From sequence record NC_136441.1: 48,646 nt of DNA; one strand, written 5' to 3'. Below the pieces are notes generated by a model. That model had not been told where the DNA came from and searched no databases. It saw nothing but the letters and a program-made list of their open reading frames with translations. The position numbers and the translations under genes were made by a program. Source of the DNA: a phage. Below are positions 21,510-46,594 of this stretch, piece after piece; position 1 is the stretch's first letter; each line of letters opens with the position of its first letter.

Positions 21510-21552
21510 ATAGCACTTTTTGCTAAAACAGCCATTCGATGCGTGGTATACT
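21510..21552 (+). promoter_or_regulatory. motif promoter (ATAGCACTTTTTGCTAAAAC + 21 nt + TATACT)
   Basis: conserved motif begins right after upstream stop; hairpin GATGCGTG/CACGCATC encloses the -10; upstream of gene 21585. Confidence 0.5.
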
Positions 21553-21584
21553 ACACGCATCAACAAACAAGAGAGGAAATAAAA

Positions 21585-21866
21585 ATGGAAAAGCAATTCA
21601 ACGAGCATGAAATCAAAGAAGTTCAGGATCACGTAGAAAAAGTCACCTCCGCACTTGCATTTACACAGCGTGAATTTTTAAAGGTGATTGATCCAAGTGA
21701 ATCGCTTGAAACTATGGCATACGTTCGCAAGGTTGCACATGCATTTGATAATGTAATTCTCACAATCTTTCAGCATGAAGATAATGAGCAATATAAAAAC
21801 ATGTTGCACCAAGCTAGTGAGGTAATGATCCAGAATTTGATTGATTACCATAATGAAGGTAAATAA
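21585..21866 (+). CDS. hypothetical protein
   Basis: 93 aa from ATG 21585, SD AGAGAGGA. Confidence 0.5.
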   Translation: MEKQFNEHEIKEVQDHVEKVTSALAFTQREFLKVIDPSESLETMAYVRKVAHAFDNVILTIFQHEDNEQYKNMLHQASEVMIQNLIDYHNEGK

Positions 21867-21922
21867 ACTCATTAATTAAATTGGCGGTGAAAGCCGCCTA
21901 ACCTATCAGCGGAGTGAATTAG

Positions 21923-22585
21923 ATGAAATTTTCAGAGCAAAACGCAAATGTGATTAAGGCATTGTTTGAGGCGCGTCAATTATTCACTAAAGTAAAAAAA
22001 GATAAGCAGAATACGCACCTTAAAAATAAATATGCAACGCTTGACAGTGTTCTTGATGCAATTATGCCTGGGCTTACTGATAAGGGTTTATTCCTTACAC
22101 AAGATCAGAAAGTCAGTGAAGATCTTAAATCAATGACTGTATTCACGCGATTCATTCATGTTGAATCAAACGAATGGGTAGAATATAGCTTCACGCTTCC
22201 AATGCAGAAATTAGATCCTCAAGGCGGCGGCTCAACAAATAGCTATGCTCGACGTTATGCGCTTTGCACTGCTTTAGGATTGGCAACGGCTGACGATGAC
22301 GCAAATCTTGCCACCAAAAACGCGCAGGATTGGAAAAAAGATCTTGATGCTTGCGATAACCTTACAGATCTGCAAGAGACGTTTAAAACGGCTTACAAGC
22401 AATCTGACGCAGCAAACCGCCGCATCATTAAAGAGCATTACGACAAGCTAAAAGCAAAAATGGAAATCGGAAATGCTCGCGGTTTTAATCCGGCAGCGCC
22501 AGCGGCTAATGTTGCGAAGAAGGAAAAGGTTGAAAACGAGCAGCAACAGGAAGTAAAATCTCAATCTATCACAGACTTTGAATAA
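21923..22585 (+). CDS. erf: Erf-like single-strand annealing protein
   Basis: 220 aa, SD GGAGTG; N-terminal region resembles ERF-family SSAPs; adjacent to nuclease and SSB. Confidence 0.6.
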   Translation: MKFSEQNANVIKALFEARQLFTKVKKDKQNTHLKNKYATLDSVLDAIMPGLTDKGLFLTQDQKVSEDLKSMTVFTRFIHVESNEWVEYSFTLPMQKLDPQGGGSTNSYARRYALCTALGLATADDDANLATKNAQDWKKDLDACDNLTDLQETFKTAYKQSDAANRRIIKEHYDKLKAKMEIGNARGFNPAAPAANVAKKEKVENEQQQEVKSQSITDFE

Positions 22586-22623
22586 ATTAACGTGGGGCGG
22601 TAACGCCCCAATAAGGATTAAGA

Positions 22624-23049
22624 ATGCACGTAATCACCGGAGAAATTCGCAAAGAGCCATTTGTAAAGCAAGGCGCAAACGGCACGTTATACATCGTTGA
22701 ATTAGCGGAATCGTATAAAGATCGTGAAGGTAATCGACAGTATACCAATTACAAGTTTTTCTTTAATGCCAAAAGCGACGGCATGAATAATTGGTATCGC
22801 GATGCGTTCCAGATCGGTAAGGTTGTTTCAGTATCGTGCGATCAGTTACGCATTGATAGCAACGAATACAACGGACAAATTTATAACACGCTAACAAGTG
22901 CTGGATTTGCTAACCTGCAATTTAGCCAGCGCGGGGAAGGTCAAGCACCACAACAGCAACGACCGCCTCAGCAACATCGACCACAGCAACAGCAAGCGCC
23001 ACAAAACAACGAGCCTCCAATGGATTTCGACGACGATATCCCATTCTGA
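22624..23049 (+). CDS. ssb: single-stranded DNA-binding protein
   Basis: 141 aa with Gln/Pro-rich linker and acidic C-terminal tail ending DDDIPF. Confidence 0.75.
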   Translation: MHVITGEIRKEPFVKQGANGTLYIVELAESYKDREGNRQYTNYKFFFNAKSDGMNNWYRDAFQIGKVVSVSCDQLRIDSNEYNGQIYNTLTSAGFANLQFSQRGEGQAPQQQRPPQQHRPQQQQAPQNNEPPMDFDDDIPF

Positions 23050-23053
23050 TAAA

Positions 23054-23084
23054 ATAAAACCCCGCAATGCGGGGTTTTTTATTA
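23054..23084. terminator. bidirectional rho-independent terminator between convergent genes
   Basis: AAAACCCCGC-AAT-GCGGGGTTTT flanked by A-run and T-run. Confidence 0.8.
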
Positions 23085-25253: not shown

Positions 25254-25294
25254 AATTTCACCTCATAGCATTTTTTGTTAAAATAGGTCATGTA

Positions 25295-26344: not shown

Positions 26345-26375
26345 TTCTCAACCTCCAAATAAAAAGCCTGGCACG

Positions 26376-26420
26376 ATGATAAACCATGCCAGGCTATAAT
26401 TTTTAGCAATCAGTGCTATC
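26376..26420 (-). promoter_or_regulatory. motif promoter (ATAGCACTGATTGCTAA + 22 nt + TATCAT) upstream of primase
   Basis: motif overlaps last codons/stop of HTH gene; -10 sits in loop of hairpin 26366..26394, which is followed by a T-run (also terminator-like). Confidence 0.45.
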
Positions 26421-27011
26421 CATAGTGATGACAACTTTCTTTTTCTGATTGGCTTCCTTTGCTTTCCTGCGTTCTTCTTTCGCCTTGTCTCGTTCAGCCT
26501 TGCGCCGCGCTTTCTCCTTCTCGCGTTCTTCTGGTGGCATTGACCGCAACGGATCGTAAGGCCGCACAAATCCGCGCGCCTCCGCTTCTTCTTTTGTGAC
26601 AAATCGCATGAGCTTTCTGTTGCTGCAACGATTCTCTAATGGCTTGCCGTTGTTGTCAAAGCGCAAATCTGGACGGCAATATGAAGCGCGGAAGCCGTTA
26701 AAACCTTTGCGGCGGTAATCCTTTTGGATCAGTTCAGCGCCTTTAGCTGAAATCATGCCGCGCTCTTTCCATCCCCACACTGTTTTAAGGTTAACGCCAA
26801 TCTCACGCGCCAACGCAGCACAGCCGCCATAAGCGCTAACCACCTCATCAAGCCTCGCTTTTAATCCTGCCCTTACTTCTTCCTTTAGTACCAGATAACC
26901 GCTAACAGGTGCGCGGCGCTTCCGGTCTTTACCACGCCTTACGCCGTTGTTACCATTGATTGTGCGTTTGTCGATTTCGCCCGTTGAGGCCGCAATTTTG
27001 ATTTCGCTCAT
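26403..27011 (-). CDS. helix-turn-helix DNA-binding protein (candidate transcription regulator)
   Basis: 202 aa; HTH-like GGCAALAREIGVNLKTVWGW; highly basic Lys/Arg/Glu C-terminal tail; SD AGGTGA. Confidence 0.5.
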   Translation of the reverse strand: MSEIKIAASTGEIDKRTINGNNGVRRGKDRKRRAPVSGYLVLKEEVRAGLKARLDEVVSAYGGCAALAREIGVNLKTVWGWKERGMISAKGAELIQKDYRRKGFNGFRASYCRPDLRFDNNGKPLENRCSNRKLMRFVTKEEAEARGFVRPYDPLRSMPPEEREKEKARRKAERDKAKEERRKAKEANQKKKVVITMDSTDC

Positions 27012-27021: not shown

Positions 27022-27064
27022 ATAGCACTTTTTGCTAAAAAACTTGATTAAGTTTGTGTATGAT
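27022..27064 (+). promoter_or_regulatory. motif promoter (ATAGCACTTTTTGCTAAAAA + 21 nt + TATGAT) upstream of helicase
   Basis: motif, -10-like hexamer, hairpin ATGCC/GGCAT, then SD AAAGGA and ATG 27100. Confidence 0.5.
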
Positions 27065-27088
27065 ATGCCGCAAATGGCATTTAGTCAA
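27060..27088 (-). promoter_or_regulatory. sigma70-like promoter for HTH gene, overlapping the divergent helicase promoter
   Basis: minus strand TTGACT-N17-TATCAT; leader contains the reverse complement of the conserved motif. Confidence 0.45.
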
Positions 27089-27099: not shown

Positions 27100-29073
27100 A
27101 TGATTCCTAACATTGAAAAGCAGATTGCAGATCTTGGAGAGGAAAGGATTAAGGCAATCCAGAAGCGTTTCACGGTTGGTGAGATTGTCCCGTATGAATA
27201 CCAATGCGTTGCTTACGCTGAAATTGCAAAGCGCTTGAGTAAGTATGTTGATCCGTTTTTCGTTAAAGCGGCGGTGTCGGCAGGTAAAACAATCATCTTT
27301 GCTATGGTTGCGGCTCAGTGCAGGAAAATGGGATTGAAAGCGTTATTTCTGGCGCGTCAATCTGAAATTGTGGATCAGGATTCAAAAGAGATTAGCGCCT
27401 TTGGTGTTCCGAATTCCGTTTATTGCGCTGGCCTGAATACCAAAAGCGCTTATTTCCCGATTGTTGTAGGATCGGAAGGTACTGTAATTGGCGGATTGAA
27501 TAAGGCGTTAGGTGATTACGTCCCACAGGTTTTAGGTATAGATGAATGTCATCAAGTCAACTGGAATGACATTGTTGAAGCCGAGGAAAACGGAGAAAGC
27601 ATAGAGCAGATGATGACGCCGAAAGGTGAACCAGTTGAAGGCAATCCGTTGCTGATTGGTTCAGGCCGCGCACAATACACCATTATCATTGCAGAAATGC
27701 GCCGCCGTTGTCTTGAGACTTACGGTCATCAGTTGCGTATATTTGGAATGACCGGATCGGAATATCGCGGAATTGAGCCGATACTTGTCGAAGATAAAAG
27801 AATTCCTGGGTTTTGGCGTGAGCAGATCACAAACATTGATACTGATTACCTGGTAAAATTTGGTTCAGTTGTTCCCACTTATTTTGGCAATGTTGGTGAT
27901 TTGGGTTACGACTTATCAGAATTTACGCCAGTGAATGAATTTGGCGTTGCTGATTATGACCAGAAGCAATTAAAGGCCATGAGTGACAAGATTCACCAAT
28001 CAGGAACCATGACGCAGAAAATAATGCAGATGGTTCACGAGGTGATGAAAAACCGCTTGTGCGCTCTTGTTACTTGCGCTGACGAAAGGCACTGCAAAGA
28101 GGCAGCGGCGGCGCTTCCGTCTGGCACGAAATATCACATTATTACCGGAAAAACTGGAGAGAAACAGCGGCGCTTATGGCTTGAGGATGCATATGAAGGG
28201 CGCGTTAAATACATCTTCCAGGTTCAGGCGCTAACAACTGGCGTTAACGTTCCGCCGTGGGATACTTCTGTGATTTTGCGTAAGATCGGAAGCCTGACGC
28301 TATTAACTCAGCTTTTGGGGCGTGGTATGCGTCAATTAAAAACATACCATAAAGAAGTATTGGGAATGCACAAAACAGATCACCTTGTTTTAGATTTTTC
28401 CGGCACGATGTTTGAAATGGGTAATTTGTATTTCGATCCTATGCTTGAGCAAGCGCAATTCCAGTTGCGTAAATCGCAGGATAAAGATCCGAAATTTTGC
28501 CCGATTTGCGGAACGGAAAATTCATTCTATGCGCGGCGTTGCATTAATGAAGATGAAAACGGAAATCGTTGTGAGCACTTTTGGACGTTTCAAACGTGTG
28601 AGGATCAGATTGATGGCCGCACAAAGAAAATAACGGTAAAAGGTTGTGGTGCTAAAAATGACGTTGCGGCGCGTGTATGCCGTTGCTGTAATGTTCAGTT
28701 ACGTGATCCAAATGATAATTTATCCGGCAAGATGTACCGCAAAAATGATTGGTGCGACGTGTTAGATTTTAATGTGACGCTGACAAAAAACCAGGCTGGC
28801 GTAATATTCTGCTACACGTTGCGCGATAGTGGCGGCGTAGAATTCAGGGCATACGAAAAATATTTCCCTGAATCAGAACACAAGATATGCAAAACGCTTT
28901 GGACAAAGGCTGTTAGAACACACGTTATAGATCGCCAGGCTGCAAACTATATGATAACTTGCCGCAACGCAATTAAGATCATGAGTTATGCGGGGCAAAT
29001 ATTGCCACCGAAGCGCGTTACGCATCGCAAGAACACAAAGAAAGAAGATTTAATAGCACAGAAGGAATTTTAA
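27100..29073 (+). CDS. SF2 DEAD/DEAH-box-type helicase with C-terminal Cys-rich zinc-finger region
   Basis: 657 aa; Walker A AVSAGKT, DEAH-like GIDECHQ, several CxxC pairs near C-terminus. Confidence 0.8.
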   Translation: MIPNIEKQIADLGEERIKAIQKRFTVGEIVPYEYQCVAYAEIAKRLSKYVDPFFVKAAVSAGKTIIFAMVAAQCRKMGLKALFLARQSEIVDQDSKEISAFGVPNSVYCAGLNTKSAYFPIVVGSEGTVIGGLNKALGDYVPQVLGIDECHQVNWNDIVEAEENGESIEQMMTPKGEPVEGNPLLIGSGRAQYTIIIAEMRRRCLETYGHQLRIFGMTGSEYRGIEPILVEDKRIPGFWREQITNIDTDYLVKFGSVVPTYFGNVGDLGYDLSEFTPVNEFGVADYDQKQLKAMSDKIHQSGTMTQKIMQMVHEVMKNRLCALVTCADERHCKEAAAALPSGTKYHIITGKTGEKQRRLWLEDAYEGRVKYIFQVQALTTGVNVPPWDTSVILRKIGSLTLLTQLLGRGMRQLKTYHKEVLGMHKTDHLVLDFSGTMFEMGNLYFDPMLEQAQFQLRKSQDKDPKFCPICGTENSFYARRCINEDENGNRCEHFWTFQTCEDQIDGRTKKITVKGCGAKNDVAARVCRCCNVQLRDPNDNLSGKMYRKNDWCDVLDFNVTLTKNQAGVIFCYTLRDSGGVEFRAYEKYFPESEHKICKTLWTKAVRTHVIDRQAANYMITCRNAIKIMSYAGQILPPKRVTHRKNTKKEDLIAQKEF

Positions 29074-29074
29074 T

Positions 29075-29482
29075 ATGGTTATTGATAAAGGCGATTATCT
29101 GGAGTATTACGACAAGTCAGATCCAGACGATAGGAAGGAGGAATCGCACCAGGTTGATTCTTATTCATGGCTAACATATGAGTTTCCCATGTGGCTTGTT
29201 TGGCACACTAAAAACGAGGGGAAGAAAACCATAGGCACAGCCGTAAAGGATCAGCAAGCGGGTGTGAAGAAGGGAGTTAGCGACATTCTAATCCTGACTG
29301 GTTTTATTGGCTGCAAGTATTCATTTATAGCCATTGAGCTTAAACGCGCCAACAAGAAAGGCACGAAGGTAAGCGACGAACAAAAGGAATTCTTGCGACG
29401 TGTCAGAGAGTGCGGAGGGTTTGCCGCCGTATGCTATGGAGTAGAGCAAGTAAAATTGGCTATCGCAGACGCTACAAAATAG
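29075..29482 (+). CDS. VRR-NUC domain nuclease
   Basis: 135 aa; D...E.K-type core (SDILIL ... IAIELKRA) typical of VRR-NUC; immediately downstream of helicase. Confidence 0.55.
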   Translation: MVIDKGDYLEYYDKSDPDDRKEESHQVDSYSWLTYEFPMWLVWHTKNEGKKTIGTAVKDQQAGVKKGVSDILILTGFIGCKYSFIAIELKRANKKGTKVSDEQKEFLRRVRECGGFAAVCYGVEQVKLAIADATK

Positions 29483-29522
29483 CACTTTTTGTTAAAACAG
29501 GCGCAACGGAATGCGCCATAAT
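29479..29522 (+). promoter_or_regulatory. motif promoter (ATAGCACTTTTTGTTAAAAC + 22 nt + CATAAT)
   Basis: motif overlaps TAG stop of VRR-NUC; spacer hairpin GGCGCA/TGCGCC; upstream of lipoprotein gene. Confidence 0.55.
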
Positions 29523-29553
29523 GCACCCATCAGAACGAAACGGAGAATTAACC

Positions 29554-37432: not shown

Positions 37433-37444
37433 TTTAAATACTCC

Positions 37445-37967: not shown

Positions 37968-38118
37968 TTACGGCGATAAACGGATATCCTGTTAAATCTG
38001 CATTTCTATAACGTGCAGACCTAACCCAACAGCCGCCTTTGCTCATAATTAAAGCGTTTTTATGGCGAATGTTCACGCGGTAAATTCTTCCGGTTTTTAT
38101 GTTTTTGAAATATGTCAT
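37951..38118 (-). CDS. hypothetical 55-aa protein
   Basis: ATGA overlap with upstream gene stop and SD GAGGT; 3' end runs through the motif. Confidence 0.3.
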   Translation of the reverse strand: MTYFKNIKTGRIYRVNIRHKNALIMSKGGCWVRSARYRNADLTGYPFIAVNSTNC

Positions 38119-38348: not shown

Positions 38349-38629
38349 TAGATGTTCTCGCTAATAAACTGGATAACCTGGCGAAGATGTTTTTCATCTT
38401 TAATTAATGCTGGCAATTCTTCCATAACTTCTTTTTTAAGATAAATGTTTGCATTCCAGGTGAATGAGCCATCACCATTTACGCGGTAAGAGCAAAGCCA
38501 TTCGCAATCATTATCAGATTCCCAAATGCACAGCGTTTCAAATTCTTCAAACTTGTTGTAACCCGTTTCAATGCTTAACTCAATGCCACGTTTTCCAGCG
38601 AAGTTAGTAGTTGTTTTTGATACCATCAT
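38348..38629 (-). CDS. hypothetical protein
   Basis: 93 aa downstream of motif promoter. Confidence 0.45.
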   Translation of the reverse strand: MMVSKTTTNFAGKRGIELSIETGYNKFEEFETLCIWESDNDCEWLCSYRVNGDGSFTWNANIYLKKEVMEELPALIKDEKHLRQVIQFISENI

Positions 38630-38661
38630 TTTAAAATTCTCCGGTTCGTTTCGATGAATGT

Positions 38662-38705
38662 ATTATGCCAAAACAAACCGGATCGCTTTTAACAAAAAGT
38701 GCTAT
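38662..38705 (-). promoter_or_regulatory. motif promoter (ATAGCACTTTTTGTTAAAAG + 22 nt + CATAAT)
   Basis: minus strand, upstream of 38348..38629. Confidence 0.5.
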
Positions 38706-38807
38706 TTAATTAAAATACGAATACCTTTTCGCACGCTTTCCGTCGCCTCCGTAATGGTCATTAGCAACAGCAAGAATCCAAGCGTTAGGAATAAAAAATA
38801 GCTTCAT
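38706..38807 (-). CDS. hypothetical 33-aa hydrophobic peptide
   Basis: MKLFFIPNAWILAVAN...; SD GGAGAG; start overlaps stop of upstream gene (TAATG). Confidence 0.25.
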   Translation of the reverse strand: MKLFFIPNAWILAVANDHYGGDGKRAKRYSYFN

Positions 38808-39001
38808 TAATCACTCTCCATGATAATTACAGGCTCCATGCGCTCAAGCACCACTTTGAAATCGGAGTAAAAAGTAGGGCGACGTTTTGTCAATTCCTCA
38901 TAGGTATCAGTTGCCAGGCAAGCGCGATCACCTTCATAGCACACAACGCGTTTACCATTTGCGCGACTGATTGCAACTACGCGATATGTATTATTGATCA
39001 T
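38807..39001 (-). CDS. hypothetical protein
   Basis: 64 aa, translationally coupled. Confidence 0.4.
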   Translation of the reverse strand: MINNTYRVVAISRANGKRVVCYEGDRACLATDTYEELTKRRPTFYSDFKVVLERMEPVIIMESD

Positions 39002-39234
39002 TTCATCACCTCAATTGAATAAATACTTTCAACGCCTGGCGCGTATAACCGCTTTCCATCTTCAGTTATGCAAAGACAAAGGGCAAGGCCGCGATTGTCT
39101 GAAATATGCAAGTCATTTTGTCTATCCATCAAAATTTCATATTCGCGATCTTCATCAAAGCGCCAAACGCTTAACATGCACTTTCCAGATGATTTAACTT
39201 TTACTTTCTTTCCGGTGAAATTTAAACGACTCAT
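38998..39234 (-). CDS. hypothetical protein
   Basis: 78 aa, translationally coupled. Confidence 0.4.
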   Translation of the reverse strand: MSRLNFTGKKVKVKSSGKCMLSVWRFDEDREYEILMDRQNDLHISDNRGLALCLCITEDGKRLYAPGVESIYSIEVMK

Positions 39235-39455
39235 TGCGCCACCTCAACAGTTTCAAATACGGTATTGAATGCCAGAAGTTTAAATTTCTTGCCTGGCTCA
39301 ACCACTGCGATATTCCAGGTAATGCCGCCGTGATATGCAACCATATCATCAATATCGACGGTGATTTGTGCGCCCTTCTTGAATAAACCTTTCTCATGAG
39401 TAGCGTCACGTTCAGTAACTACAGTTTCGAATTGCGTTTGTTGTTCAAAGTTCAT
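39231..39455 (-). CDS. hypothetical protein
   Basis: 74 aa from ATG with SD AGGAGA; ORF-track extension to 39596 (TTG) spans the motif promoter and is rejected. Confidence 0.45.
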   Translation of the reverse strand: MNFEQQTQFETVVTERDATHEKGLFKKGAQITVDIDDMVAYHGGITWNIAVVEPGKKFKLLAFNTVFETVEVAQ

Positions 39456-39485
39456 CGTTGATTCTCCTGATTGGTTGATGTGTGC

Positions 39486-39530
39486 ATTATGCCCGGAATC
39501 AGATCCGGCACGTTTAACAAAAAGTGCTAT
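39486..39530 (-). promoter_or_regulatory. motif promoter (ATAGCACTTTTTGTTAAAC + 23 nt + CATAAT)
   Basis: minus strand; hairpin CCGGA/TCCGG in spacer. Confidence 0.5.
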
Positions 39531-39672
39531 TTCAAAACACAGAATGCTCTTGCGTCGTAGGTATGCTTCATAACAATCTCGCGAGCATCCAGGCAACGCG
39601 ATTTGCTATTAAACTCTTGTGTCGTAACCGCCTCACCTTGCATTGTTTGAAGAGCAATAATTAGCACGTAAA

Positions 39673-39891
39673 TCATTTTTCCTTTCCTTCATTGTATGTA
39701 AGGTTAATGTGAATTGATGCACTTCCGACAATTTCAGCGGTTCCAATCTCAACCATGTATATCAATTCATGGCGGCTAAATGATGTGTACGCAGGGAAGC
39801 CGTCAACAATGCGCATAACCGGAAGTTCACTGTATTTTGTGTTAGGCACTGCGTATTCATTGCCAGTGCTCTTGATGCGTATGAGTATCAT
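39673..39891 (-). CDS. hypothetical protein
   Basis: 72 aa, coupled to upstream gene. Confidence 0.45.
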   Translation of the reverse strand: MILIRIKSTGNEYAVPNTKYSELPVMRIVDGFPAYTSFSRHELIYMVEIGTAEIVGSASIHINLTYNEGKEK

Positions 39892-39905
39892 TGTTCTATC
39901 TCCAG

Positions 39906-40157
39906 TTACTTAGTAAGCCATTCCACACATTTAATGATGCACTCACCCTGTGAGCCGTAAAAAACACTTATCCCTTTCTGGCAGATTGTCCAGGTGCGAG
40001 ATCCCTTTGCGGTCTGCCTTACTTCAATCTGTAAGCCGCCACGCACCATGCATTTGAAAGCGCCAACCTTCTTACCTTTGCGCTTAGTGGTGTAATAGTC
40101 AGTTACCGTGATGCCTTTGTCAGTTGCCAGGTCAATCGCTTGTTGGATAGTTGCCAC
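39906..40157 (-). CDS. hypothetical protein
   Basis: 83 aa from GTG 40157 with SD AGGGGA; ORF-track TTG start 40199 is upstream of the predicted transcription start. Confidence 0.4.
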   Translation of the reverse strand: MATIQQAIDLATDKGITVTDYYTTKRKGKKVGAFKCMVRGGLQIEVRQTAKGSRTWTICQKGISVFYGSQGECIIKCVEWLTK

Positions 40158-40187
40158 TTTAAAATCCCCTGTCGTTTCGATGTGGTT

Positions 40188-40231
40188 ACTATATCGCAAC
40201 CCCTGAATCGAGTTTTAACAAAAAGTGCTAT
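40188..40231 (-). promoter_or_regulatory. motif promoter (ATAGCACTTTTTGTTAAAAC + 22 nt + TATAGT)
   Basis: minus strand; palindromic TCGAT...ATCGA and GGTT/AACC around the -10. Confidence 0.5.
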
Positions 40232-40341
40232 TTACCAGTAATGATGATCTTCATTTCCGAAGTGCTTACTGATGAATTGAGCAATCAAAATAAGCACATA
40301 TAATACAATAACCAACGTGAATAATTTTAATAAGAAGCAAA

Positions 40342-40524
40342 TCATTTCTTTAATACTGAAAAGTAATAAGGATTTGACAATCCGTGTTTGCGAGCAATTT
40401 TTTCAGCCTCAACAGCGCCAACAATTGATGCCAATATCTCTACGCTATCCTTTCTATCTGTCATATCGGCAGAGTTAGCAAGGTTGATTTGAAAAAACGC
40501 AATCGGATCTTGTGTGAAGTGCAT
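40342..40524 (-). CDS. hypothetical protein
   Basis: 60 aa, SD GGAGAT, first gene of minus-strand early block. Confidence 0.4.
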   Translation of the reverse strand: MHFTQDPIAFFQINLANSADMTDRKDSVEILASIVGAVEAEKIARKHGLSNPYYFSVLKK

Positions 40525-40554
40525 TGTTTTATCTCCAGTTGTTTAGATGTGCTC

Positions 40555-40599
40555 AATGTAGCGCATTCGTTTTGATTGGTTTTAACAAAAAGTGCTATT
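40555..40599 (-). promoter_or_regulatory. motif promoter (ATAGCACTTTTTGTTAAAAC + 22 nt + TACATT)
   Basis: minus strand, first promoter of the leftward early block. Confidence 0.5.
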
Positions 40600-40607
40600 C
40601 ATGCAGT

Positions 40608-41188: not shown

Positions 41189-41216
41189 TTGACGCATAAG
41201 CCAGGCTTGCTAAGAT
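41189..41216 (+). promoter_or_regulatory. sigma70-like promoter for rightward early block
   Basis: TTGACG-N16-TAAGAT about 35 nt upstream of SD GGAGG and ATG 41251. Confidence 0.5.
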
Positions 41217-41250
41217 TTCTGCATCGAGCAACAACGGAGGATAACCAATC

Positions 41251-41538
41251 ATGGTAAGGGGCAAAATCGTAAAGCGTGACCTATCCATAGTTGATGCAAC
41301 GCCAGAAGATGCAACCAAAGATATCATGCGCCTAATGTACATAGCACGGATATTGGGGGCTGCAAAACCAAACAGGCTGTATTACATCGACATTAAGGCA
41401 TCCGGTCGCGACGTTAATTCATTGCGCCAGGCAATAAACACGATTGCGAAAGAGGATCGCAGAACCATTAAGACAATAACCACTGATAACGGCTATATCG
41501 GCTTTGTTATCATCGACGTTAAAGAAGCGTTTGTGTAA
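41251..41538 (+). CDS. hypothetical early protein
   Basis: 95 aa, SD GGAGGA. Confidence 0.5.
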   Translation: MVRGKIVKRDLSIVDATPEDATKDIMRLMYIARILGAAKPNRLYYIDIKASGRDVNSLRQAINTIAKEDRRTIKTITTDNGYIGFVIIDVKEAFV

Positions 41539-41549
41539 AGAGGTGAATC

Positions 41550-41993
41550 ATGGAACAAATGACAAGTAAAGAGTTTTGCGAAAAATTGCGTGAAGCAGCA
41601 AGAGCGGCGGCAAAAGGTGAGGTGATCAAGTTGCCAGTTGCCTACATAACAATGAACGTCCAGGCAGAGGACGCAAAGAAGCTAAATTCCTCATACATTC
41701 GCACGATCATGAATCGTGTTCCAGAAGTAAAAGAGGTTGGATCTGTAAGCGTAAAGAAAAAGACAAGCGATGACGGCGCGGAATATTACGAGATCGCAAT
41801 CAACCGTGACACAAAGCGCCGCATCGTAACAACTAATGACCTTCCGGCAATCAAAGAGCATGAGCGCGAAAAACTGGTCGAAAAGATTATGCGTATATCG
41901 CCGGACTTCTCACACCTGGACGATGAAAAGGCACTTGTTGCAATGCGAGCGGTTGCCACGTTCAAAGATCTGATTAAGGAGATCTCAAAGTGA
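41550..41993 (+). CDS. hypothetical early protein
   Basis: 147 aa, SD AGAGGTGA. Confidence 0.5.
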   Translation: MEQMTSKEFCEKLREAARAAAKGEVIKLPVAYITMNVQAEDAKKLNSSYIRTIMNRVPEVKEVGSVSVKKKTSDDGAEYYEIAINRDTKRRIVTTNDLPAIKEHEREKLVEKIMRISPDFSHLDDEKALVAMRAVATFKDLIKEISK

Positions 41994-42097
41994 AAGCATT
42001 CGCCCTTGTCGCTGCAATGTGGTGCATGGTTATTGGTCATCCTGGCGTTACGCTGGCGTTGTGCGTATTTATTTTGTTGGGGGTGTTTGATGAATAA
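41990..42097 (+). CDS. hypothetical 35-aa hydrophobic peptide (GTG start)
   Basis: GTGA overlap with upstream stop, SD AAGGAG 8 nt upstream; single TM-like segment. Confidence 0.25.
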   Translation: MKAFALVAAMWCMVIGHPGVTLALCVFILLGVFDE

Positions 42098-42203
42098 GAA
42101 ACTTTTAGATCATGCCGTGGTGTTCTTTATCGCTGCTGCTGGATTTTCGCTGTTGTCAATTGCTTTTTCAATCCTTGCTTTTGCCGTGTCAATGCTGAAA
42201 TGA
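42090..42203 (+). CDS. hypothetical 37-aa membrane peptide
   Basis: ATGA overlap with preceding peptide ORF; MNKKLLDHAVVFFIAAAGFSLLSIAFSILAFAVSMLK. Confidence 0.3.
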   Translation: MNKKLLDHAVVFFIAAAGFSLLSIAFSILAFAVSMLK

Positions 42204-42225
42204 CGGATTACATCCTGATTGCTAA

Positions 42226-42269
42226 ATAGCACTTTTTGTTAAAACTCGATTGGGGTAGTTTGGCATAAT
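42226..42269 (+). promoter_or_regulatory. motif promoter (ATAGCACTTTTTGTTAAAAC + 22 nt + CATAAT)
   Basis: long hairpin TCGATTGGGGTA/TACCCCATCGA with -10 in loop; upstream of 42308. Confidence 0.55.
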
Positions 42270-42307
42270 TACCCCATCGAAACGAAACGCACTAACAGGA
42301 GAACATC

Positions 42308-42496
42308 ATGAAATTATTAGGAAAACTTAACGCTAGCTCTTTGGTAATTGGTGACTTGATTGAGGTGGCTGGATCTTTATCGGTGGTGACTAGCGTTTTT
42401 GTTGATGGGGTAAAGGTGATAATTGAGACCGACAAGCTGCACCCATTCGAGCTTTGCTGTCTTGATGAAATTAAAGTTTATTCATCATTTAACTAA
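42308..42496 (+). CDS. hypothetical protein
   Basis: 62 aa, SD AGGAGAA. Confidence 0.45.
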   Translation: MKLLGKLNASSLVIGDLIEVAGSLSVVTSVFVDGVKVIIETDKLHPFELCCLDEIKVYSSFN

Positions 42497-42501
42497 CTGG
42501 A

Positions 42502-42545
42502 AAAGCACGAATTGCTAAAAAATAATCCTGGGCTTGCGGTATAGT
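42502..42545 (+). promoter_or_regulatory. motif promoter, variant (AAAGCACGAATTGCTAAAAA + 22 nt + TATAGT)
   Basis: hairpin GGGCTT/AAGCCC around -10; upstream of 42578. Confidence 0.5.
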
Positions 42546-42577
42546 AAGCCCATACCAAACAACGAGAGGATCACAAA

Positions 42578-42977
42578 ATGAAATTAGCACGTAACGCGGT
42601 TTATGGCTTACACCTTAATAAAGGCGGCAAAGGCTCAACTTATGCACACCTTTTTCATGTTAATGAGCGCGGTCAAATTGATATTGCAATGTATGTTGAC
42701 AAACTGGTTAAAGGTTGTGAGTCCAACAAGTTCAGACCAGATCTGATTGAATACGATCACACACACAGTCACGACCACTGGTTAGGTGGTTAAAGGTTGT
42801 GAGTCCAACAAGTTCAGACCAGATCTGATTGAATACGATCACACACACAGTCACGACCACTGGTTAGGTGGTTATAAATTTACAATGCTGGATAGCCATG
42901 TTATTGACACAAGAAAATTAACGAATCGTGACTATAGGCGCATGGCTCGAAAAATCCTGAGGCAGAAAGCGCAATAG
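42578..42977 (+). pseudogene. early gene split by a perfect 82-bp tandem duplication (fragments 42578..42793 and 42786..42977)
   Basis: two ORFs share a 28-aa overlap (VKGCESNKFRPDLIEYDHTHSHDHWLGG); removing one 82-bp copy restores a single 106-codon ORF. Confidence 0.55.
42705..42868 (+). repeat. perfect 82-bp tandem duplication (2 copies) flanked by TGGTTA microhomology
   Basis: 42705..42786 is identical to 42787..42868; next 6 nt (42869..42874) repeat the unit start. Confidence 0.9.
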
Positions 42978-43017
42978 CACGAAATGTTAAGCGGCCATGT
43001 GTGCTGATTGGTACAAT
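42974..43017 (+). promoter_or_regulatory. motif promoter, variant (ATAGCACGAAATGTTAAG + 22 nt + TACAAT)
   Basis: motif overlaps TAG stop; upstream of small ORF 43050. Confidence 0.45.
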
Positions 43018-43049
43018 GACCGCATCAACCAATAGGAGAGGATAGAAAA

Positions 43050-43157
43050 ATGTCAAAAGAATCAATTAAGCAGTTTCTGAAATACGGCTCTATGATTGTG
43101 CTCGCTACCGTTGTGCTGGCTGGCATAGCTTACAGTGTCATTGAATTTGTGGGGTAA
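43050..43157 (+). CDS. hypothetical 35-aa membrane peptide
   Basis: SD GGAGAGGA; MSKESIKQFLKYGSMIVLATVVLAGIAYSVIEFVG. Confidence 0.35.
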   Translation: MSKESIKQFLKYGSMIVLATVVLAGIAYSVIEFVG

Positions 43158-43160
43158 TGG

Positions 43161-43724
43161 ATGTTTAAGATCGAATTGTGGGGCAAGGAATACACTAATC
43201 ACTACGTTGCAACAAAACAGCGTTTCGTTATTTTCGACTTGGACGGCACATTGTCAAATGGTGAGCACCGCTTACACCTGTTGCCAACTGTTGACTTGCA
43301 CCTTACTGAAAGCTGGAGTGAGTTTAATCGCGCCGCAAAGGATGATTTACCATTCATGGATAACATATCCGTGTGCAACGCCATGTTTGACGCCGGATAC
43401 CTGGTTATCATCCTAACAGGACGTAGTGATGAAGTTGAGGCAGAAACGCGAGCATGGTTAGCTGAAAACGGCGTTTCTTTCGATTGGCTGATTATGCGCC
43501 GCGCGGAGGACAACCGGAAAGATACCGTGATCAAAGAGGAAGTTTTACGGACTATCGGACTTGATCGCATTGTCGCATGTTGGGATGACTCACCAAACGT
43601 TATTGCACACCTGCGCGGCCTGGGCTTGACTGTTTACCAGGTCATTGACTACGGCGAGCAGTTACACGATCACTTAAAATCTCACGGCGTGGAGGAATTG
43701 AGCGATGACAGCAAAGCTAATTGA
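43161..43724 (+). CDS. HAD-superfamily phosphatase (polynucleotide 3'-phosphatase-like)
   Basis: 187 aa; HAD motif I FDLDGTL, motif II ILTGR, motif IV WDDSPN. Confidence 0.6.
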   Translation: MFKIELWGKEYTNHYVATKQRFVIFDLDGTLSNGEHRLHLLPTVDLHLTESWSEFNRAAKDDLPFMDNISVCNAMFDAGYLVIILTGRSDEVEAETRAWLAENGVSFDWLIMRRAEDNRKDTVIKEEVLRTIGLDRIVACWDDSPNVIAHLRGLGLTVYQVIDYGEQLHDHLKSHGVEELSDDSKAN

Positions 43725-43893
43725 AGATCGGCATGGTGATAACGTGCTTATTTACATCGAAGGGAAATCGGTGTGGATTGACTGCAAATATGAGGATGAC
43801 ACACATTTGCAGTTTCGCGGAATCTTTGACAAGAAAGGCGCGTTAGAGTTAGCGGAGCACATCAAGCGGCTTGCGGAAGAATTACCGGAATAG
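43705..43893 (+). CDS. hypothetical acidic protein
   Basis: 62 aa overlapping upstream gene end. Confidence 0.4.
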   Translation: MTAKLIEDRHGDNVLIYIEGKSVWIDCKYEDDTHLQFRGIFDKKGALELAEHIKRLAEELPE

Positions 43894-43903
43894 AGGATTT
43901 ATT

Positions 43904-44089
43904 ATGTTGACTTTTATCTTGATCGCTATCGTTTTAATTCTGTATGTTTGCGGCGCTTTCCTGATGCGAGCGCTACTAAAAGAGGCTGACGCTGATGATA
44001 AGGATAGTTGGAAGCCGATTCTTTTATGGCCTTGTTATATCATCGTGCCAATTTACGAGCTAATCCGCGATGGTGAGTTTAAATGGTAA
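43904..44089 (+). CDS. hypothetical membrane protein
   Basis: 61 aa from ATG 43904; N-terminal TM helix. Confidence 0.4.
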   Translation: MLTFILIAIVLILYVCGAFLMRALLKEADADDKDSWKPILLWPCYIIVPIYELIRDGEFKW

Positions 44090-44133
44090 ATAGCACTTTT
44101 TGCTAAAACTTGCTAAGGCACATTTGATAAAGT
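44090..44133 (+). promoter_or_regulatory. motif promoter (ATAGCACTTTTTGCTAAAAC + 22 nt + TAAAGT)
   Basis: hairpin GGCACA/TGTGCC; upstream of 44167. Confidence 0.5.
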
Positions 44134-44166
44134 GTGCCTTGTCGAGACAAGCAAGGAGAATGACTA

Positions 44167-44421
44167 ATGAAACATTACAGGTGCGGAAGTCTTATTTATC
44201 GTGACGATGGGGTTAATATTTTTGTTGCCTATTATGACAAGATGGAATTTTTTGAATCCATTTACACAAGGCGCGTTTTTAATTCAATGGTTGATGCTGG
44301 ACTTATGAAAGAGTGCGAGCCACCAAAAGCGAAGCCGTTTTATAAAAATGTTGATTTCTGGCATAACGCCGTATTAATCACAATTCTGTTAATTCTTTCT
44401 ATGTGGTTTATTTTCTTATGA
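44167..44421 (+). CDS. hypothetical protein with C-terminal TM helix
   Basis: 84 aa, SD AAGGAGAA. Confidence 0.45.
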   Translation: MKHYRCGSLIYRDDGVNIFVAYYDKMEFFESIYTRRVFNSMVDAGLMKECEPPKAKPFYKNVDFWHNAVLITILLILSMWFIFL

Positions 44422-44600
44422 TGCTTGATAATAAAGTTGAAACACAAAAGACGATCAACTATCTGCGAGCGCTTGCTGATGCTCTTGATTCCGGCGAGGC
44501 AGCATTAAATGATGTTAGTATTGAGTCAAGAAATCACGGATGGACTCAGATCGAAGAAACATTAACCGTTCAATATTTTAAGGTGAATAAAGATGGCTAA
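44403..44600 (+). CDS. hypothetical protein
   Basis: 65-aa ORF overlapping neighbours; start uncertain. Confidence 0.35.
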   Translation: MVYFLMMLDNKVETQKTINYLRALADALDSGEAALNDVSIESRNHGWTQIEETLTVQYFKVNKDG

Positions 44601-45168
44601 AATTATAATCCTCAATGCGCCTCCTGGTGCTGGTAAAGACACGATAGGCAAGATGATTTCTGTCTATTCGCCTGGTAAGCAATGCCGAATCATTAGCTTT
44701 AAAGAGCCAATGTTTGATATTGCATTAGCTATCCTGGGCAAAGAGAACTATAAGCGTTTCATGCTGGCTTACGATGACAGAGAGCAGAAAGAAAGGCCGC
44801 AAACGTTCCTGATGGGTATGTCACCGCGCGAGTTCATGATCTGGATTAGCGAGGATGTGATCAAGCCTAAATTCGGTAAGGATTATTTCGGCGTAAGGTT
44901 TAATCAGAAAGTAAAAGAGTGTGATGCTCCTGTTGTTTGCACTGATGGCGGTTTTCCAGATGAAATTATAGCGCTAATCAATGCTGGTAATGAGGTGAAG
45001 TTATGCCGCTTGCATCGCGAAGGGTTCACGTTTGCAGGTGATAGCCGCAACTACATTCGAATCAATCCCTATTACCAGAAAAACGGATATAGCGAGCACG
45101 ATTATAAATTGGTTGATAAGCAACCGAATGTAACTGTAAAGGAAATTATTCGCGATCACCTTAAATAG
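44593..45168 (+). CDS. P-loop nucleotide kinase (dNMP kinase-like)
   Basis: 191 aa; N-terminal P-loop ILNAPPGAGKDT, resembling the GxxxSGKDT pattern of phage dNMP kinases. Confidence 0.5.
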   Translation: MAKIIILNAPPGAGKDTIGKMISVYSPGKQCRIISFKEPMFDIALAILGKENYKRFMLAYDDREQKERPQTFLMGMSPREFMIWISEDVIKPKFGKDYFGVRFNQKVKECDAPVVCTDGGFPDEIIALINAGNEVKLCRLHREGFTFAGDSRNYIRINPYYQKNGYSEHDYKLVDKQPNVTVKEIIRDHLK

Positions 45169-45208
45169 CACGAATTGCTAAAACTTGCGCAAGGCCATTT
45201 GTTATAGT
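45165..45208 (+). promoter_or_regulatory. motif promoter, variant (ATAGCACGAATTGCTAAAAC + 22 nt + TATAGT)
   Basis: motif overlaps TAG stop of kinase gene; hairpin AAGGCCA/TGGCCTT. Confidence 0.5.
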
Positions 45209-45248
45209 GGCCTTATTCAAGAGAAGCAACCAATCAGAGGAATAAGCG

Positions 45249-45446
45249 ATGAAAATTAAATGCACAAAATCAAACACCATGAATCTGACAGTTGGCGCGA
45301 TTTACCATATGGAAGAAGGTGTAAACGGGTTTAGCCCAACTGTAACGCATGAATACGGCGGTCACTTCTTCTTAAACGGTAAAGACGGATTATCTGTAAA
45401 CGTTGGCTCTTTCGTACTGGCAGAATTTGAGGTCGTGGAGGAATAA
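45249..45446 (+). CDS. hypothetical protein
   Basis: 65 aa, SD AGAGGAA. Confidence 0.45.
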   Translation: MKIKCTKSNTMNLTVGAIYHMEEGVNGFSPTVTHEYGGHFFLNGKDGLSVNVGSFVLAEFEVVEE

Positions 45447-45448
45447 AA

Positions 45449-45613
45449 ATGTTTTGGATTCATTCGCCGCAAGGGTTGCTTTATGTGCCTGGCGTTGAAT
45501 TTGAAGAACGACGCGACGGCGACACGGTAAACATCATAACGAAGGATTCAAAAGGCCACACTCTTAAAACGTATGTTTTTAACACTCCGGTTAAGGTCGA
45601 AAAAGATGATTAG
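45449..45613 (+). CDS. hypothetical 54-aa protein
   Basis: ATG 45449 with SD GGAGGA inside end of upstream gene. Confidence 0.35.
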   Translation: MFWIHSPQGLLYVPGVEFEERRDGDTVNIITKDSKGHTLKTYVFNTPVKVEKDD

Positions 45614-45788
45614 ATTTATTGGTTTTGTGGCATTGCTTATGTGCGGAATATTGCTTACTGATAATGACACTTGGCAAAGCGCTGTTGGCGGTTTACTTAT
45701 TTTTCTTGCAGGTGGCATGGTTGGCAGTGATGACGCAGCAAACAAGAATAAACTTTCCGATCATTTACGCAGAGAGACAAAACGATGA
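45606..45788 (+). CDS. hypothetical membrane protein
   Basis: 60 aa from ATG 45606; two hydrophobic segments. Confidence 0.4.
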   Translation: MIRFIGFVALLMCGILLTDNDTWQSAVGGLLIFLAGGMVGSDDAANKNKLSDHLRRETKR

Positions 45789-46030
45789 ATAGAAAAATGC
45801 TGGTACGCGCATTCGCAAAGATTGCTAAAAGATGGGGTGATTCAGCTAAAACACCTTACACGTTTAGTATGTACGGTTACAAGAATGCTCGCGCCTGGGG
45901 TCGCTGCATTGCGGATAACTACAACTCCGAAATTCTGGAAGATTTCGCAAGCTGGATTGATACGCCGCTAAATGAATGGGGCCAGGCTGAATATGATTGT
46001 TTTGCTGATGAAGAAATTTCTTGCTGGTAA
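45785..46030 (+). CDS. hypothetical protein
   Basis: 81 aa, ATGA overlap. Confidence 0.45.
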   Translation: MNRKMLVRAFAKIAKRWGDSAKTPYTFSMYGYKNARAWGRCIADNYNSEILEDFASWIDTPLNEWGQAEYDCFADEEISCW

Positions 46031-46041
46031 GGAGAATTAAC

Positions 46042-46554
46042 ATGATCGCTAAAAATGACCTTTGCAACCTGTTAACTGCTGGTAATGATTATCAGGTTTT
46101 GAATAGTACAGAAGACCGTTACTTTATTGAGTGTGACAATGGTGATCGCATGTGGATTAAAAAAGGATTTTTCGAAAGCGAGCACCTAAGCAATGCAAAG
46201 CGGATCGCAGATGAAGCAAGCGCATTAGCAGAGCGTGAACGAATTCGCGATATAGTAGCGGATCAGGTTAGAAATTCTTGTTTGCCTGGTGGCGATATCT
46301 TCAAATCAATGCGCGGTGAAATGACGGTTGGAATTCAAGATCGAGTAATTGAAAAATCAGTTGATTATGTAATTGAGAATGCGAAATTCAATGCGTTGAT
46401 TGACTCAGAGCATAACGAATACGTCAAAGTATTAGAGCAACTGCGTGAAGTGCTGCGAGTGCCGGAAGGTAAAAACATAGTGACACATGCAAAGGTTGTA
46501 AGAGCGCTTGCTGATGCTTTACTTGACGTTTATCCAGGAATGAAGTGCAAATAG
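46042..46554 (+). CDS. hypothetical protein
   Basis: 170 aa from ATG 46042 with SD AAGGAGA. Confidence 0.5.
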   Translation: MIAKNDLCNLLTAGNDYQVLNSTEDRYFIECDNGDRMWIKKGFFESEHLSNAKRIADEASALAERERIRDIVADQVRNSCLPGGDIFKSMRGEMTVGIQDRVIEKSVDYVIENAKFNALIDSEHNEYVKVLEQLREVLRVPEGKNIVTHAKVVRALADALLDVYPGMKCK

Positions 46555-46594
46555 CACTTTTTGTTAAAACTTCCGCGAGGGCATTTGTTAAAGT
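46551..46594 (+). promoter_or_regulatory. motif promoter (ATAGCACTTTTTGTTAAAAC + 22 nt + TAAAGT)
   Basis: motif overlaps TAG stop; hairpin GAGGGCA/TGTCCTC. Confidence 0.5.

Follow-up and report, generated by a model that had tools for sequence, protein, structure and literature searches.

The 48,646-nt stretch NC_136441.1 (the window, meaning the whole stretch of DNA analyzed here) is all, or nearly all, of the genome of a T1-like phage of the Tls type (Drexlerviridae, Tempevirinae). Over 6 kb, its sequence is 95–97% identical to those of Citrobacter phage BSwS KMM3, Escherichia phages U136B and Tls, and Salmonella phage phSE-2, and its gene order is the order of TLS. The late structural genes occupy the nucleotides ~1–20000, and the recombination, replication, and lysis genes follow. 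Small early genes are arranged in two divergent arms, ~34000–40600 on the minus strand and ~41200–48600 on the plus strand. A motif, ATAGCAC-N5-GYTAAAA, is repeated upstream of early and replication genes. Each copy, together with the -10-like hexamer and the predicted transcription start (+1) downstream from it, is here called a cassette.

The motif has 16 exact matches in the window against 0.00 expected from 100 shuffles, and 23 matches against 1.02 expected if up to two mismatches are allowed. Eighteen copies are co-oriented with the downstream gene, and all of them read GCAC...AAA in that direction. An earlier inspection of the letters (the sequence-only reading) had listed these 18 sites. 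All are present as placed there, and the minus-strand coordinates, which are 5' ends, are right to within 1 nt. The asymmetric motif pointing with the downstream gene was likewise found again in the 18 copies, and so was the frequent overlap with the upstream gene's stop codon: at least 10 of the 18 copies share bases with it or lie directly next to it. The whole element is an asymmetric 20-bp box, ATAGCAC-N3-TTGYTAAAAC.

A simple -10 matrix was used to score every hexamer 3' of the motif. Measured from TTGYTA, the best -10-like hexamer is at 22 nt in 15 of the 18 sites, at 21 nt in two (21510 and 27022), and at 23 nt in one (39512), which reproduces the spacing given in the sequence-only reading. 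Essentially no hexamer of -10 quality is seen at other offsets from the motif. That score is reached by 0.94% of the hexamers in the window, and the binomial probability of the spacing is ~3e-28. Counted from the 20-bp box, the hexamer is 18 nt downstream. The predicted +1 is the A of a conserved CAT (C-1/A+1/T+2) located 7 nt past the hexamer, the usual start context of sigma70 promoters, and the box is thus at about -50 to -31. A Shine-Dalgarno (SD) sequence and a start codon follow at 18 of 18 sites, as had been noticed before, with leaders of 20–34 nt after the predicted +1. The distance from the 5' end of the motif to the start codon is 70–84 nt. Many leaders (+1 to +15) open with conserved AUCGAAACGAAAC or AUCAACCAAUCAGG before the SD sequence. 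This conserved leader start may have a common role in translation or stability, or it may be left over from a common ancestor of the cassettes.

Base conservation was computed over 240 cassettes with distinct downstream regions, taken from the pooled Drexlerviridae set described below. G is seen at -14 in more than 80% of them and TG at -15/-14 in 43%, and C-1/A+1/T+2 are conserved. A at -11 and T at -7 are conserved as predicted for sigma70 promoters. The match to TTGACA at 17-nt spacing is on average 1.63 of 6 nucleotides, and there is no recognizable -35 hexamer. The motif is very probably the upstream half of a promoter. As far as the nucleotide sequence can tell, the cassettes are sigma70-type promoters without a -35 element and with a strictly positioned upstream box. 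Activator-dependent logic had been proposed in the sequence-only reading, and it stands: the -10 distance is fixed, the -35 hexamer is missing, CAT is conserved, and the position, ~-50 to -32, is where an activator site, and not a sigma70 -35 element, would lie.

The box corresponds to the marbox, the operator of the host activators MarA, SoxS, Rob, and RamA. Marbox consensus sequences have been given as GCAnnWWnTGnnAAA (PMC12052159) and GCAHWWWWTGYYAAA (PMC6900184); the pattern at micF is CACT-7X-AAA, and the canonical marbox is TTT-7X-CGTG (PMC8811837). The copies fall into T-, G-, and A-types, the subgroups by marbox variant as defined for the repeat of TLS. T-type copies, GCA-C-TTTT-TG-TT/CT-AAA, match GCAHWWWWTGYYAAA at 15 of 15 positions and also fit the micF pattern. 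G-type copies, GCA-C-GAAT-TG-CT-AAA, match at 14 of 15, have no mismatch to the looser consensus, and are the reverse complement of the canonical pattern. The "phage-specific" sequence of the sequence-only reading is therefore a consensus host marbox in class II configuration. A marbox weight matrix was built from Salmonella sites determined by chromatin immunoprecipitation sequencing (ChIP-seq) and scanned over the window. Seventeen of the 18 best positions are motif copies, with 15.0–17.3 bits. On the same matrix, the real ChIP-seq sites score 11.2 at the median, 15.7 at the 90th percentile, and 17.6 at most, and the phage copies reach roughly that 90th percentile or exceed it. Positions at or above the real-site median number 36 in the window and 5.7 in shuffles. 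The other high scorers in the window are few, intragenic, and without a -10 hexamer at the right distance.

In class II promoters, a forward marbox overlaps the -35 element and is centered at -36 to -55 (PMC12052159), and the RamA site at micF is at ~-41 (PMC8811837). The phage 15-mer lies at -47 to -33 of the predicted +1, centered at ~-40/-41 and overlapping the -35 position. In micF of E. coli MG1655, the box ACAGCACTGAATGTCAAAAC is at -51 to -32, based on the 5' end of micF RNA, and 18 nt separate it from TAGAAT. The phage box is identical to it at 15 of 20 positions, with the same 18 nt between box and hexamer. The distance from the 15-mer to the hexamer is 20 nt in both the phage cassettes and micF, and 19 nt in fumC. 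With the marRAB operator box, ATGCCACGTTTTGCTAAATC, the phage box agrees at 16 of 20 positions. Published class II promoters have a mean -35 match of 1.9 of 6, and in the complexes of Rob or SoxS at the class II promoter micF, sigma70 is displaced from the -35 element. The marboxes of sodA and nfo were too degenerate for the matrix to locate. Judged by sequence, every feature that defines class II MarA/SoxS/Rob/RamA promoters at this level is present in the cassettes. The likeness to micF and fumC covers the consensus box in forward orientation over -35 with its center at ~-41, the 18 nt to -10 as in micF, the missing -35 element, and the canonical sigma70 -10 and start. The cassettes differ in being carried by a virulent phage genome, ~18 per 49 kb, and in being near-consensus throughout, whereas chromosomal marboxes are degenerate. 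They are also intergenic units with an embedded stem-loop and a conserved leader.

The repeat itself has been published. The re-annotation of TLS in 2024 (PMC11447400) reported a 21-nt direct repeat, aaATAGCACnnnTTGnTAAAA, in 21 copies (18 intergenic), oriented along transcription and ~76 nt before start codons. It divided the repeat into subgroups A, T, and G, noted it also in T1, Rtp, and Rogue1, proposed roles as a stoperator, an enhancer-binding site, or an UP element, and described three sigma70-like promoters in the whole TLS genome (PMC11447400). The repeat is the same element as the motif in the window, with which it shares orthologous positions (direct repeats DR1–DR18), orientation, and the ~76-nt distance to start codons. 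Since the repeat was already published, the feature itself is not new, and the statement of the sequence-only reading that it was undescribed in T1-like phages does not hold. Conservation of position in related phages, which had been named there as a test, is observed in TLS. The TLS paper ties the repeat neither to a -10 hexamer nor to a promoter nor to the marbox. Relative to the literature searched, what is new is the reading, from its sequence and position, that the repeat forms the upstream half of a promoter and that it is a consensus marbox placed as in class II promoters.

The architecture is seen across the family. In T1, from another subfamily, ~20 copies occur; TATAGT, TATAAT, or TATTAT hexamers again follow at 22 nt, and the spacers are unrelated in sequence. 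The same architecture with different spacers is found in phiEB49 (Rogunavirinae) and HCF1 (Hicfunavirus). Pooling the loci of an IMG/VR scan with T1, TLS, and the window gave 394 distinct cassettes. The -10 hexamer is at exactly 22 nt in 270 of them and at 21 or 23 nt in 32, so that 302 of 394 are within 22 +/- 1. The motif is identical in all phages examined, whose hosts include Escherichia, Salmonella, Klebsiella, Citrobacter, Cronobacter, and Hafnia. The T/G subtype is not conserved at orthologous sites between the window phage and T1; the primase gene and the DUF3987/gp9 helicase-like gene differ. Subtypes thus shift between orthologous sites, and there is no evidence that T- and G-types mean different regulation. 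A scan for the composite of the motif, 17 nt, and G-N-Y-A-NNN-T in one genome per species of 100,044 bacterial and archaeal species gave scattered single hits in unrelated taxa and none in enterobacterial chromosomes. The one exception to these single hits is a 46.7-kb contig, NZ_VSMK01000220.1, of a Nitratidesulfovibrio liaohensis assembly, which carries four complete cassettes and is probably a contaminating T1-like phage genome. In its exact form, the composite is therefore a property of this phage family.

Five cassettes lie among the recombination, replication, and lysis genes. The cassette at 21510–21559 (plus) has the marbox ATAGCACTTTTTGCTAAAA followed at 21 nt by the -10 hexamer TATACT with an extended TGn and a predicted +1 at ~21559; it precedes the open reading frame (ORF) 21543 region (gp52-like), and its hairpin has a z of -5.4. 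At 26369–26419 (minus), the marbox ATAGCACTGATTGCTAAAA is within the last six codons of the gp57-like gene, and a 13-bp terminator hairpin carries the -10 hexamer TATCAT in its loop; the downstream gene encodes primase (start at 26344), and the counterpart in TLS is T57/DR10. Here the marbox (26401–26424, minus) encodes the tail of the gp57-like protein, ATG GAT AGC ACT GAT TGC TAA = M D S T D C stop. Even shorter homologues keep the C-terminal (D/E)ST(D/N)C, so that the protein tail seems to be dictated by the DNA motif. The cassette at 27022–27071 (plus) has ATAGCACTTTTTGCTAAAA and, at 21 nt, TATGAT with TGn; it precedes the helicase gene (27100) and faces the sigma70-type promoter of the gp57-like gene. 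At 29479–29529 (plus), CATAAT is 22 nt from the marbox, and an SD sequence and ATG at 29566 follow, in frame within the ORF 29410–29832. The cassette at 30803–30853 (plus) has the terminator hairpin CCCGC-ttcg-GCGGG-TTTT in its spacer and the -10 hexamer TATTAT, precedes the ORF 30845, and corresponds to DR12/T62 of TLS.

The minus-strand early arm contains seven cassettes. The one at 35824–35874 has the G-type marbox ATAGCACGAATTGCTAAAA and TATAAT in a hairpin loop, upstream of the DUF3987 ATPase gene (start at 35803). It is followed in order of coordinates by 36504–36554 (T-type, with a spacer hairpin and CATAAT; ORF start at 36478), 37917–37967 (G-type, TGaTATAAT; ORF start at 37892), and 38655–38705 (T-type, TGgCATAAT; ORF start at 38629). 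The cassette at 39479–39530 has one mismatch (...TAAAC), a 23-nt distance, and CATAAT, and serves a gene similar to the Gp54 trigger with its real start at ~39443. The small early protein of this gene (39231–39443, minus), which thus has its own marbox cassette, matches Pfam PF25180, "Phage antiviral trigger protein Gp54", with E = 9e-32. The remaining two are at 40181–40231 (T-type, TATAGT; ORF with a GTG start at ~40139) and 40548–40598 (T-type, TACATT; ORF start at 40524).

In the plus-strand early arm, the cassette at 42226–42276 (T-type) has TGgCATAAT within an interrupted 14-bp hairpin upstream of the ORF 42308. That at 42502–42552 has AAAGCACGAATTGCTAAAA and TATAGT in a hairpin loop, upstream of the ORF 42578. 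At 42974–43024, ATAGCACGAAATGTTAAGC has two mismatches and is followed by TGgTACAAT, a small ORF at ~43054, and then the polynucleotide kinase/phosphatase gene. Three further cassettes carry the -10 hexamer in a hairpin loop: 44090–44140 (T-type, TGaTAAAGT; ORF 44167), 45165–45215 (G-type, TGtTATAGT; ORF 45249), and 46551–46601 (T-type, TGtTAAAGT; ORF 46629).

For three ORFs, 29410–29832, 39231–39596, and 39906–40199, the cassettes predict start codons later than those of the longest ORFs. The ATG at 29566 (MKKMLSVVALS..., similar to a signal peptide) is in frame inside the gp60-like ORF. The ATG at ~39443 is backed by the Pfam Gp54 match, which starts at residue 52, and a GTG at ~40139 is the predicted start for the ORF 39906–40199. 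The TLS authors dropped three repeats as "within genes"; for at least one of them, the likely cause is a gene start that was called wrongly.

Three more copies, at 6312 (minus), 16196 (plus), and 25265 (plus), have no -10 hexamer at the class II distance by the same scoring. The marbox-like copy at 6312–6330 (minus), ATAGCATTTTTTGTTAAAC, is antisense to the genes; it falls between the two hexamers of a TTGAAC-16-TATATT match that precedes the major capsid gene, and its equivalent in T1 is 15086 (minus). The A-type copy at 16196–16214 (plus), ATAGCACAAAAGGTTAAAA, stops 3 nt short of the start codon, ATG, of the 1258-aa J-like tail fiber gene (25021, plus, in T1). The copy at 25265–25283 (plus) is antisense and at ~+6 to +24 of a TTGCAT-17-CATAAT promoter-like site of the 723-aa fiber gene on the minus strand (34902, plus, in T1). 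The copy at 27022 can be considered together with them. The sigma70-type promoter of the gp57-like gene, TTGACT-17-TATCAT, is at 27060–27088 (minus) and corresponds to P57 of TLS. The 27022 marbox is 3' of its predicted start while positioned for the divergent helicase promoter. Marboxes over core promoters are candidate repression sites, with one MarA-repressed example, pbpG (PMC12052159). It can be speculated that a protein bound at reverse-oriented copies, or at copies just 5' of late-gene starts, would repress and not activate.

The sequence-only reading had the motif absent from the late structural module. This fits the 18 promoter-type copies, and two extra copies in the late module mean that the motif is not strictly absent there. 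The "ordinary TTGAC-N16/17-TATAAT" promoters assigned to the late operons found no support: sigma70-type consensus matches are not enriched in the late module (1–20000), with 32 against 38.9 +/- 7.1 in shuffled sequence. At 5806–16164, strong terminator hairpins follow many late genes, and their T-tracts often run into TATTAT or TATAT a few nucleotides before the next SD sequence, as at 7350–7409, 7683–7730, and 9996–10066. Upstream of terS (48600–48646 and 1–16), there are a terminator hairpin, TATAAT, and cacgCATCAACAGGAGG, that is, the core and leader of a cassette without the marbox. This element may carry transcription of the early arm into the late genes, or may be a separate type of promoter.

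Between the tail-fiber gene and recE is an A/T-rich non-coding region of 411 nt (19995–20405) with TATATA runs and two copies of ACAAAAAGAACA-N-ATAAA, which might serve as an origin, packaging, or regulatory region. The host labels look doubtful for about 20 "Campylobacter phage" records and for Streptococcus phage MBBL140, all ~95% identical to T1-like phages of enterobacteria.

The 42 nt 3' of the motif are prone to form hairpins. Their mean z of minimum free energy is -3.2 against -0.16 in random windows, 13 of the 18 sites have z < -1.5, and the Mann-Whitney P is 2e-8. The stem brackets the -10 hexamer in many cassettes and sits in the spacer in others. Two of these hairpins are full intrinsic terminators, at 26401 and 30803 (T57 and T62 of TLS). 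Covariation over the 240 cassettes gave only a weak excess (best anti-diagonal -24/-1 to -19/-6) and no single register. The variable position of the hairpin makes an N4-type mechanism with a fixed hairpin promoter unlikely. The stem-loop would most likely attenuate or terminate transcription arriving from the upstream gene, as shown for the promoter-early stem-loop (PeSL) cassettes of T4-type phages. With such read-through attenuated, each small early gene would be its own unit. PeSL cassettes of RB49 and phi1 are the published precedent and mediate shuffling (PMC2839356). Both kinds of cassettes consist of an upstream stop codon, a promoter, a stem-loop between the elements or over -10, and an SD sequence with a start codon, repeated between small early genes. 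They are also alike in their association with gene shuffling, for which the counterpart is seen in phiEB49. Its late module contains four HNH endonuclease genes (27450–27929, 32390–32872, 34853–35377, and 42154–42642), each with a marbox cassette 5' of it. This arrangement suggests that the cassette moves with mobile genes. The difference is that PeSL has both the -35 and the -10 element of consensus sigma70 promoters and is A/T-rich upstream, while the phage cassettes have a marbox in place of -35. The cassettes can be described, on the basis of their sequence, as putative class II promoters of the mar/sox/rob type in PeSL-like packaging.

What reads the box is a separate question. The sequence-only reading compared the cassettes with the middle promoters of T4. 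This analogy is right in that an activator replaces the -35 contact: in both, a box takes the place of -35 above a sigma70 -10, and sigma region 4 contacts no -35 hexamer. The MotA box is centered at ~-30, 11–13 bp upstream of -10, and needs phage MotA and AsiA. The phage motif has another sequence and is at about -50 to -32 with its center at ~-41, and no Pfam match to MotA or AsiA was obtained in 50 ORFs of the window (the early regions and two adjacent large genes; E <= 0.5, or E <= 0.01 in the first batch). The analogy thus fails in box sequence, box position, and the presence of MotA/AsiA.

The explanation we favor is that the host activators MarA, SoxS, Rob, and possibly RamA use the cassettes, to which we assign a probability of roughly 0.6 on sequence grounds. 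A monomeric activator of this family, which carries a pair of helix-turn-helix (HTH) motifs, would bind the box with one HTH on GCAC and the other on AAA. It would replace the contact of sigma region 4 with -35 and recruit RNA polymerase. Rob is a likely candidate, because it acts independently of any upstream regulator and its affinity for DNA is reported to be much higher than that of MarA or SoxS (PMC10268841). MarA, SoxS, or RamA would add activation under salicylate, oxidative, or antibiotic stress. The site is invariant across phages of many enterobacterial hosts, which points to a conserved host reader. No MarA homologue was found in the six-frame translation of the window by tblastn and phmmer (best E 0.23), and Pfam gave no AraC-type domain in the 50 ORFs.

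Several facts weigh against a host activator. The classical mutations that make cells resistant to T1 affect receptor and TonB functions and are not known to lie in rob, marA, or soxS, and we know of no report of rob, marA, or soxS mutants resisting T1. The redundancy of three paralogues could hide their effect. The motif is more uniform than chromosomal marboxes, even at positions without consensus (5' ATA and TT before G); copying among cassettes or a more specific reader could account for this uniformity. It is possible that a non-homologous phage protein recognizes the same sequence. Rob is largely aggregated and inactive under standard growth, and the amounts of MarA and SoxS are governed by the sensors MarR and SoxR. 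With Rob mostly aggregated and MarA, SoxS, and RamA under sensor control, the host model is weaker for a fast lytic phage. The figure for activation by RamA at micF is ~twofold (PMC8811837). The literature searched gave no binding, transcription-start, or genetic data for these phages, nor transcription-start data for any Drexlerviridae.

Among the rivals, a phage protein as the reader survives best, although it is unlikely. The cassettes would then be true middle promoters, read by the gp57-like protein, by a 130-aa winged-helix protein, or by an unrecognized small early protein. The gp57-like regulator (26403–27011, minus) has an HTH of the P22_Cro/YdaS type, and its predicted core superposes on the Cro proteins of Xfaso-1 and N15. 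Its gene is family-wide (830 phage records) and has its own sigma70-type promoter, P57 in TLS. A motif copy between that promoter and the gene, which also serves the divergent helicase, has a geometry like that of autoregulation. The core of the motif contains a partial dyad, TAGCA-N5-TGCTA, that would suit a dimeric protein of the Cro type, and the greater uniformity of the motif compared with host marboxes would fit such a reader as well. Residues 14–33 of the gp57-like protein form an invariant basic segment, IDKRTINGNNGxRRGKDxxxR, which is better conserved than the HTH and, in a low-confidence model, could contact DNA. However, the recognition helix differs widely in an alignment of 30 members (NLKTVWGW, SQQTVNQW, THQAIQQW, TNQAVEEW, and others) among phages with the identical motif. 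A variable recognition helix combined with an invariant motif weakens the case for the gp57-like protein as the reader, and the fold of this protein is of the Cro/C-protein type and not of the MarA type. The 130-aa "HTH" protein (33828–34220, minus) is a predicted winged helix with weak matches of the MarR/GntR type, and was rejected as a mimic of MarA. Neither candidate has the two-HTH fold of MarA in its predicted structure. The TAGCA-N5-TGYTA dyad, centered at -42, is real in TGCTA copies but broken (TGTTA) in half of the copies. As an operator for a dimeric protein it is superseded by the asymmetric marbox, because the marbox explains all conserved positions and the orientation. With a phage reader, the perfect marbox match in sequence, orientation, and distance would need coincidence or mimicry.

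The explanations other than a host activator and a phage reader are improbable even when taken together. RNA polymerase could read the motif directly, as an UP-like A/T element with a displaced TTGYTA, and the cassettes would be constitutive strong early promoters without an activator. UP elements are degenerate A/T-rich sequences at ~-59 to -38, read by the C-terminal domain of the alpha subunit (alpha-CTD). T and A tracts and a TTGNTA hexamer are present in the motif, the extended -10 TG of 43% of cassettes can work without -35, and similarity to UP elements was proposed by the TLS authors (PMC11447400). Direct reading is nevertheless quite improbable. At 22 nt, TTGYTA is out of phase with sigma region 4 by about half a helical turn, alpha-CTD or UP elements do not call for the near-invariant G/C positions (G, C, and C of GCAC and the G of TG), the box reaches -32, beyond the range of UP elements, and the exact marbox match is left unexplained. 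A contribution of alpha-CTD at the cassettes is possible.

An operator for a repressor that shuts off early transcription, like a stoperator or in the manner of Cro, was also suggested by the TLS authors (PMC11447400), and would suit a phage that encodes a Cro-fold protein and has non-activating copies near late gene starts and 3' of the gp57 promoter. This is very improbable as the function of the cassettes: a -10 distance fixed to a single nucleotide over hundreds of cassettes is typical of stereospecific activation and needless for repression, and promoters without -35 would be weak anyway in the absence of an activating contact.

For another host protein, Lrp is the example to be considered. 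Its SELEX (systematic evolution of ligands by exponential enrichment) consensus, a string attested in the literature, is YAGHAWATTWTDCTR, and matches TAGCACTTTTTGCTA at 13 of 15 positions as counted by hand. That match is reached in one subtype, G-type and TGTTA copies fit less (11–12 of 15), no known rule fixes an Lrp site at -41 in one orientation, and the marbox explains sequence, asymmetry, and distance together, all of which makes Lrp a highly improbable reader. Several other candidates were rejected. Sigma54 promoters have TGGCAC-N5-TTGCW with the GG and GC elements exactly 10 bp apart, whereas the motif, TAGCAC-N3-TTGC, is 2 nt short and has AG for GG, half of its copies have TTGT, and a sigma70-type -10 follows. 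CCCCAT after -10 resembles a sigma32 element, with no CTTGAA at the required distance. The consensus sequences of IHF, Fis, CRP, FNR, and DnaA do not fit in a comparison by eye. Finally, an element of RNA processing or stability, or a recombination hotspot with incidental -10-like hexamers, would agree with the significant hairpins 3' of the motif, the cassettes flanking mobile HNH genes in phiEB49, and the shuffling mediated by PeSL cassettes, but it is hardly credible, as the hairpin register varies while the -10 position is constant, A-11, T-7, G-14, and CAT at +1 are conserved as in sigma70 promoters, and the hairpins are explicable as attenuators alongside promoter function.

Transcription of T1-like phages is a long-standing question, since they encode no RNA polymerase or sigma factor and three sigma70-type promoters are described in TLS. 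If the repeat is read as forming the upstream half of each of ~18 promoters, a concrete map of transcription results and several gene starts are corrected, and reading the box as a marbox opens a cheap and direct experimental route. The broadest proposal is that Drexlerviridae have placed almost their whole early and DNA-metabolism transcription, ~18 promoters per genome, under the mar/sox/rob(/ram) regulon of the host via near-perfect class II marboxes. It is put forward tentatively, at somewhat short of even odds. In the literature searched, no virulent phage is described with a host stress-activator regulon as its main promoter class.

If a phage protein reads the box, it would be a phage factor that shares, or competes for, a host operator. 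If host activators are used, the cassettes would be compact, strong, marbox-controlled promoter parts, and the vigor of infection would depend on the activity of Rob, MarA, SoxS, or RamA. The phage would then respond to bile salts, salicylate, and oxidative stress, and to the marR, soxR, and ramR mutations common in multidrug-resistant isolates. How well it performs would be coupled to the regulon behind efflux-mediated multidrug resistance, which also controls tolC. Phages of the Tls/U136B type, which are explored for phage steering, use TolC as their receptor, and the question bears on phage-antibiotic interactions. In these TolC-using phages of the Tls type, the receptor and the promoters would be co-regulated.

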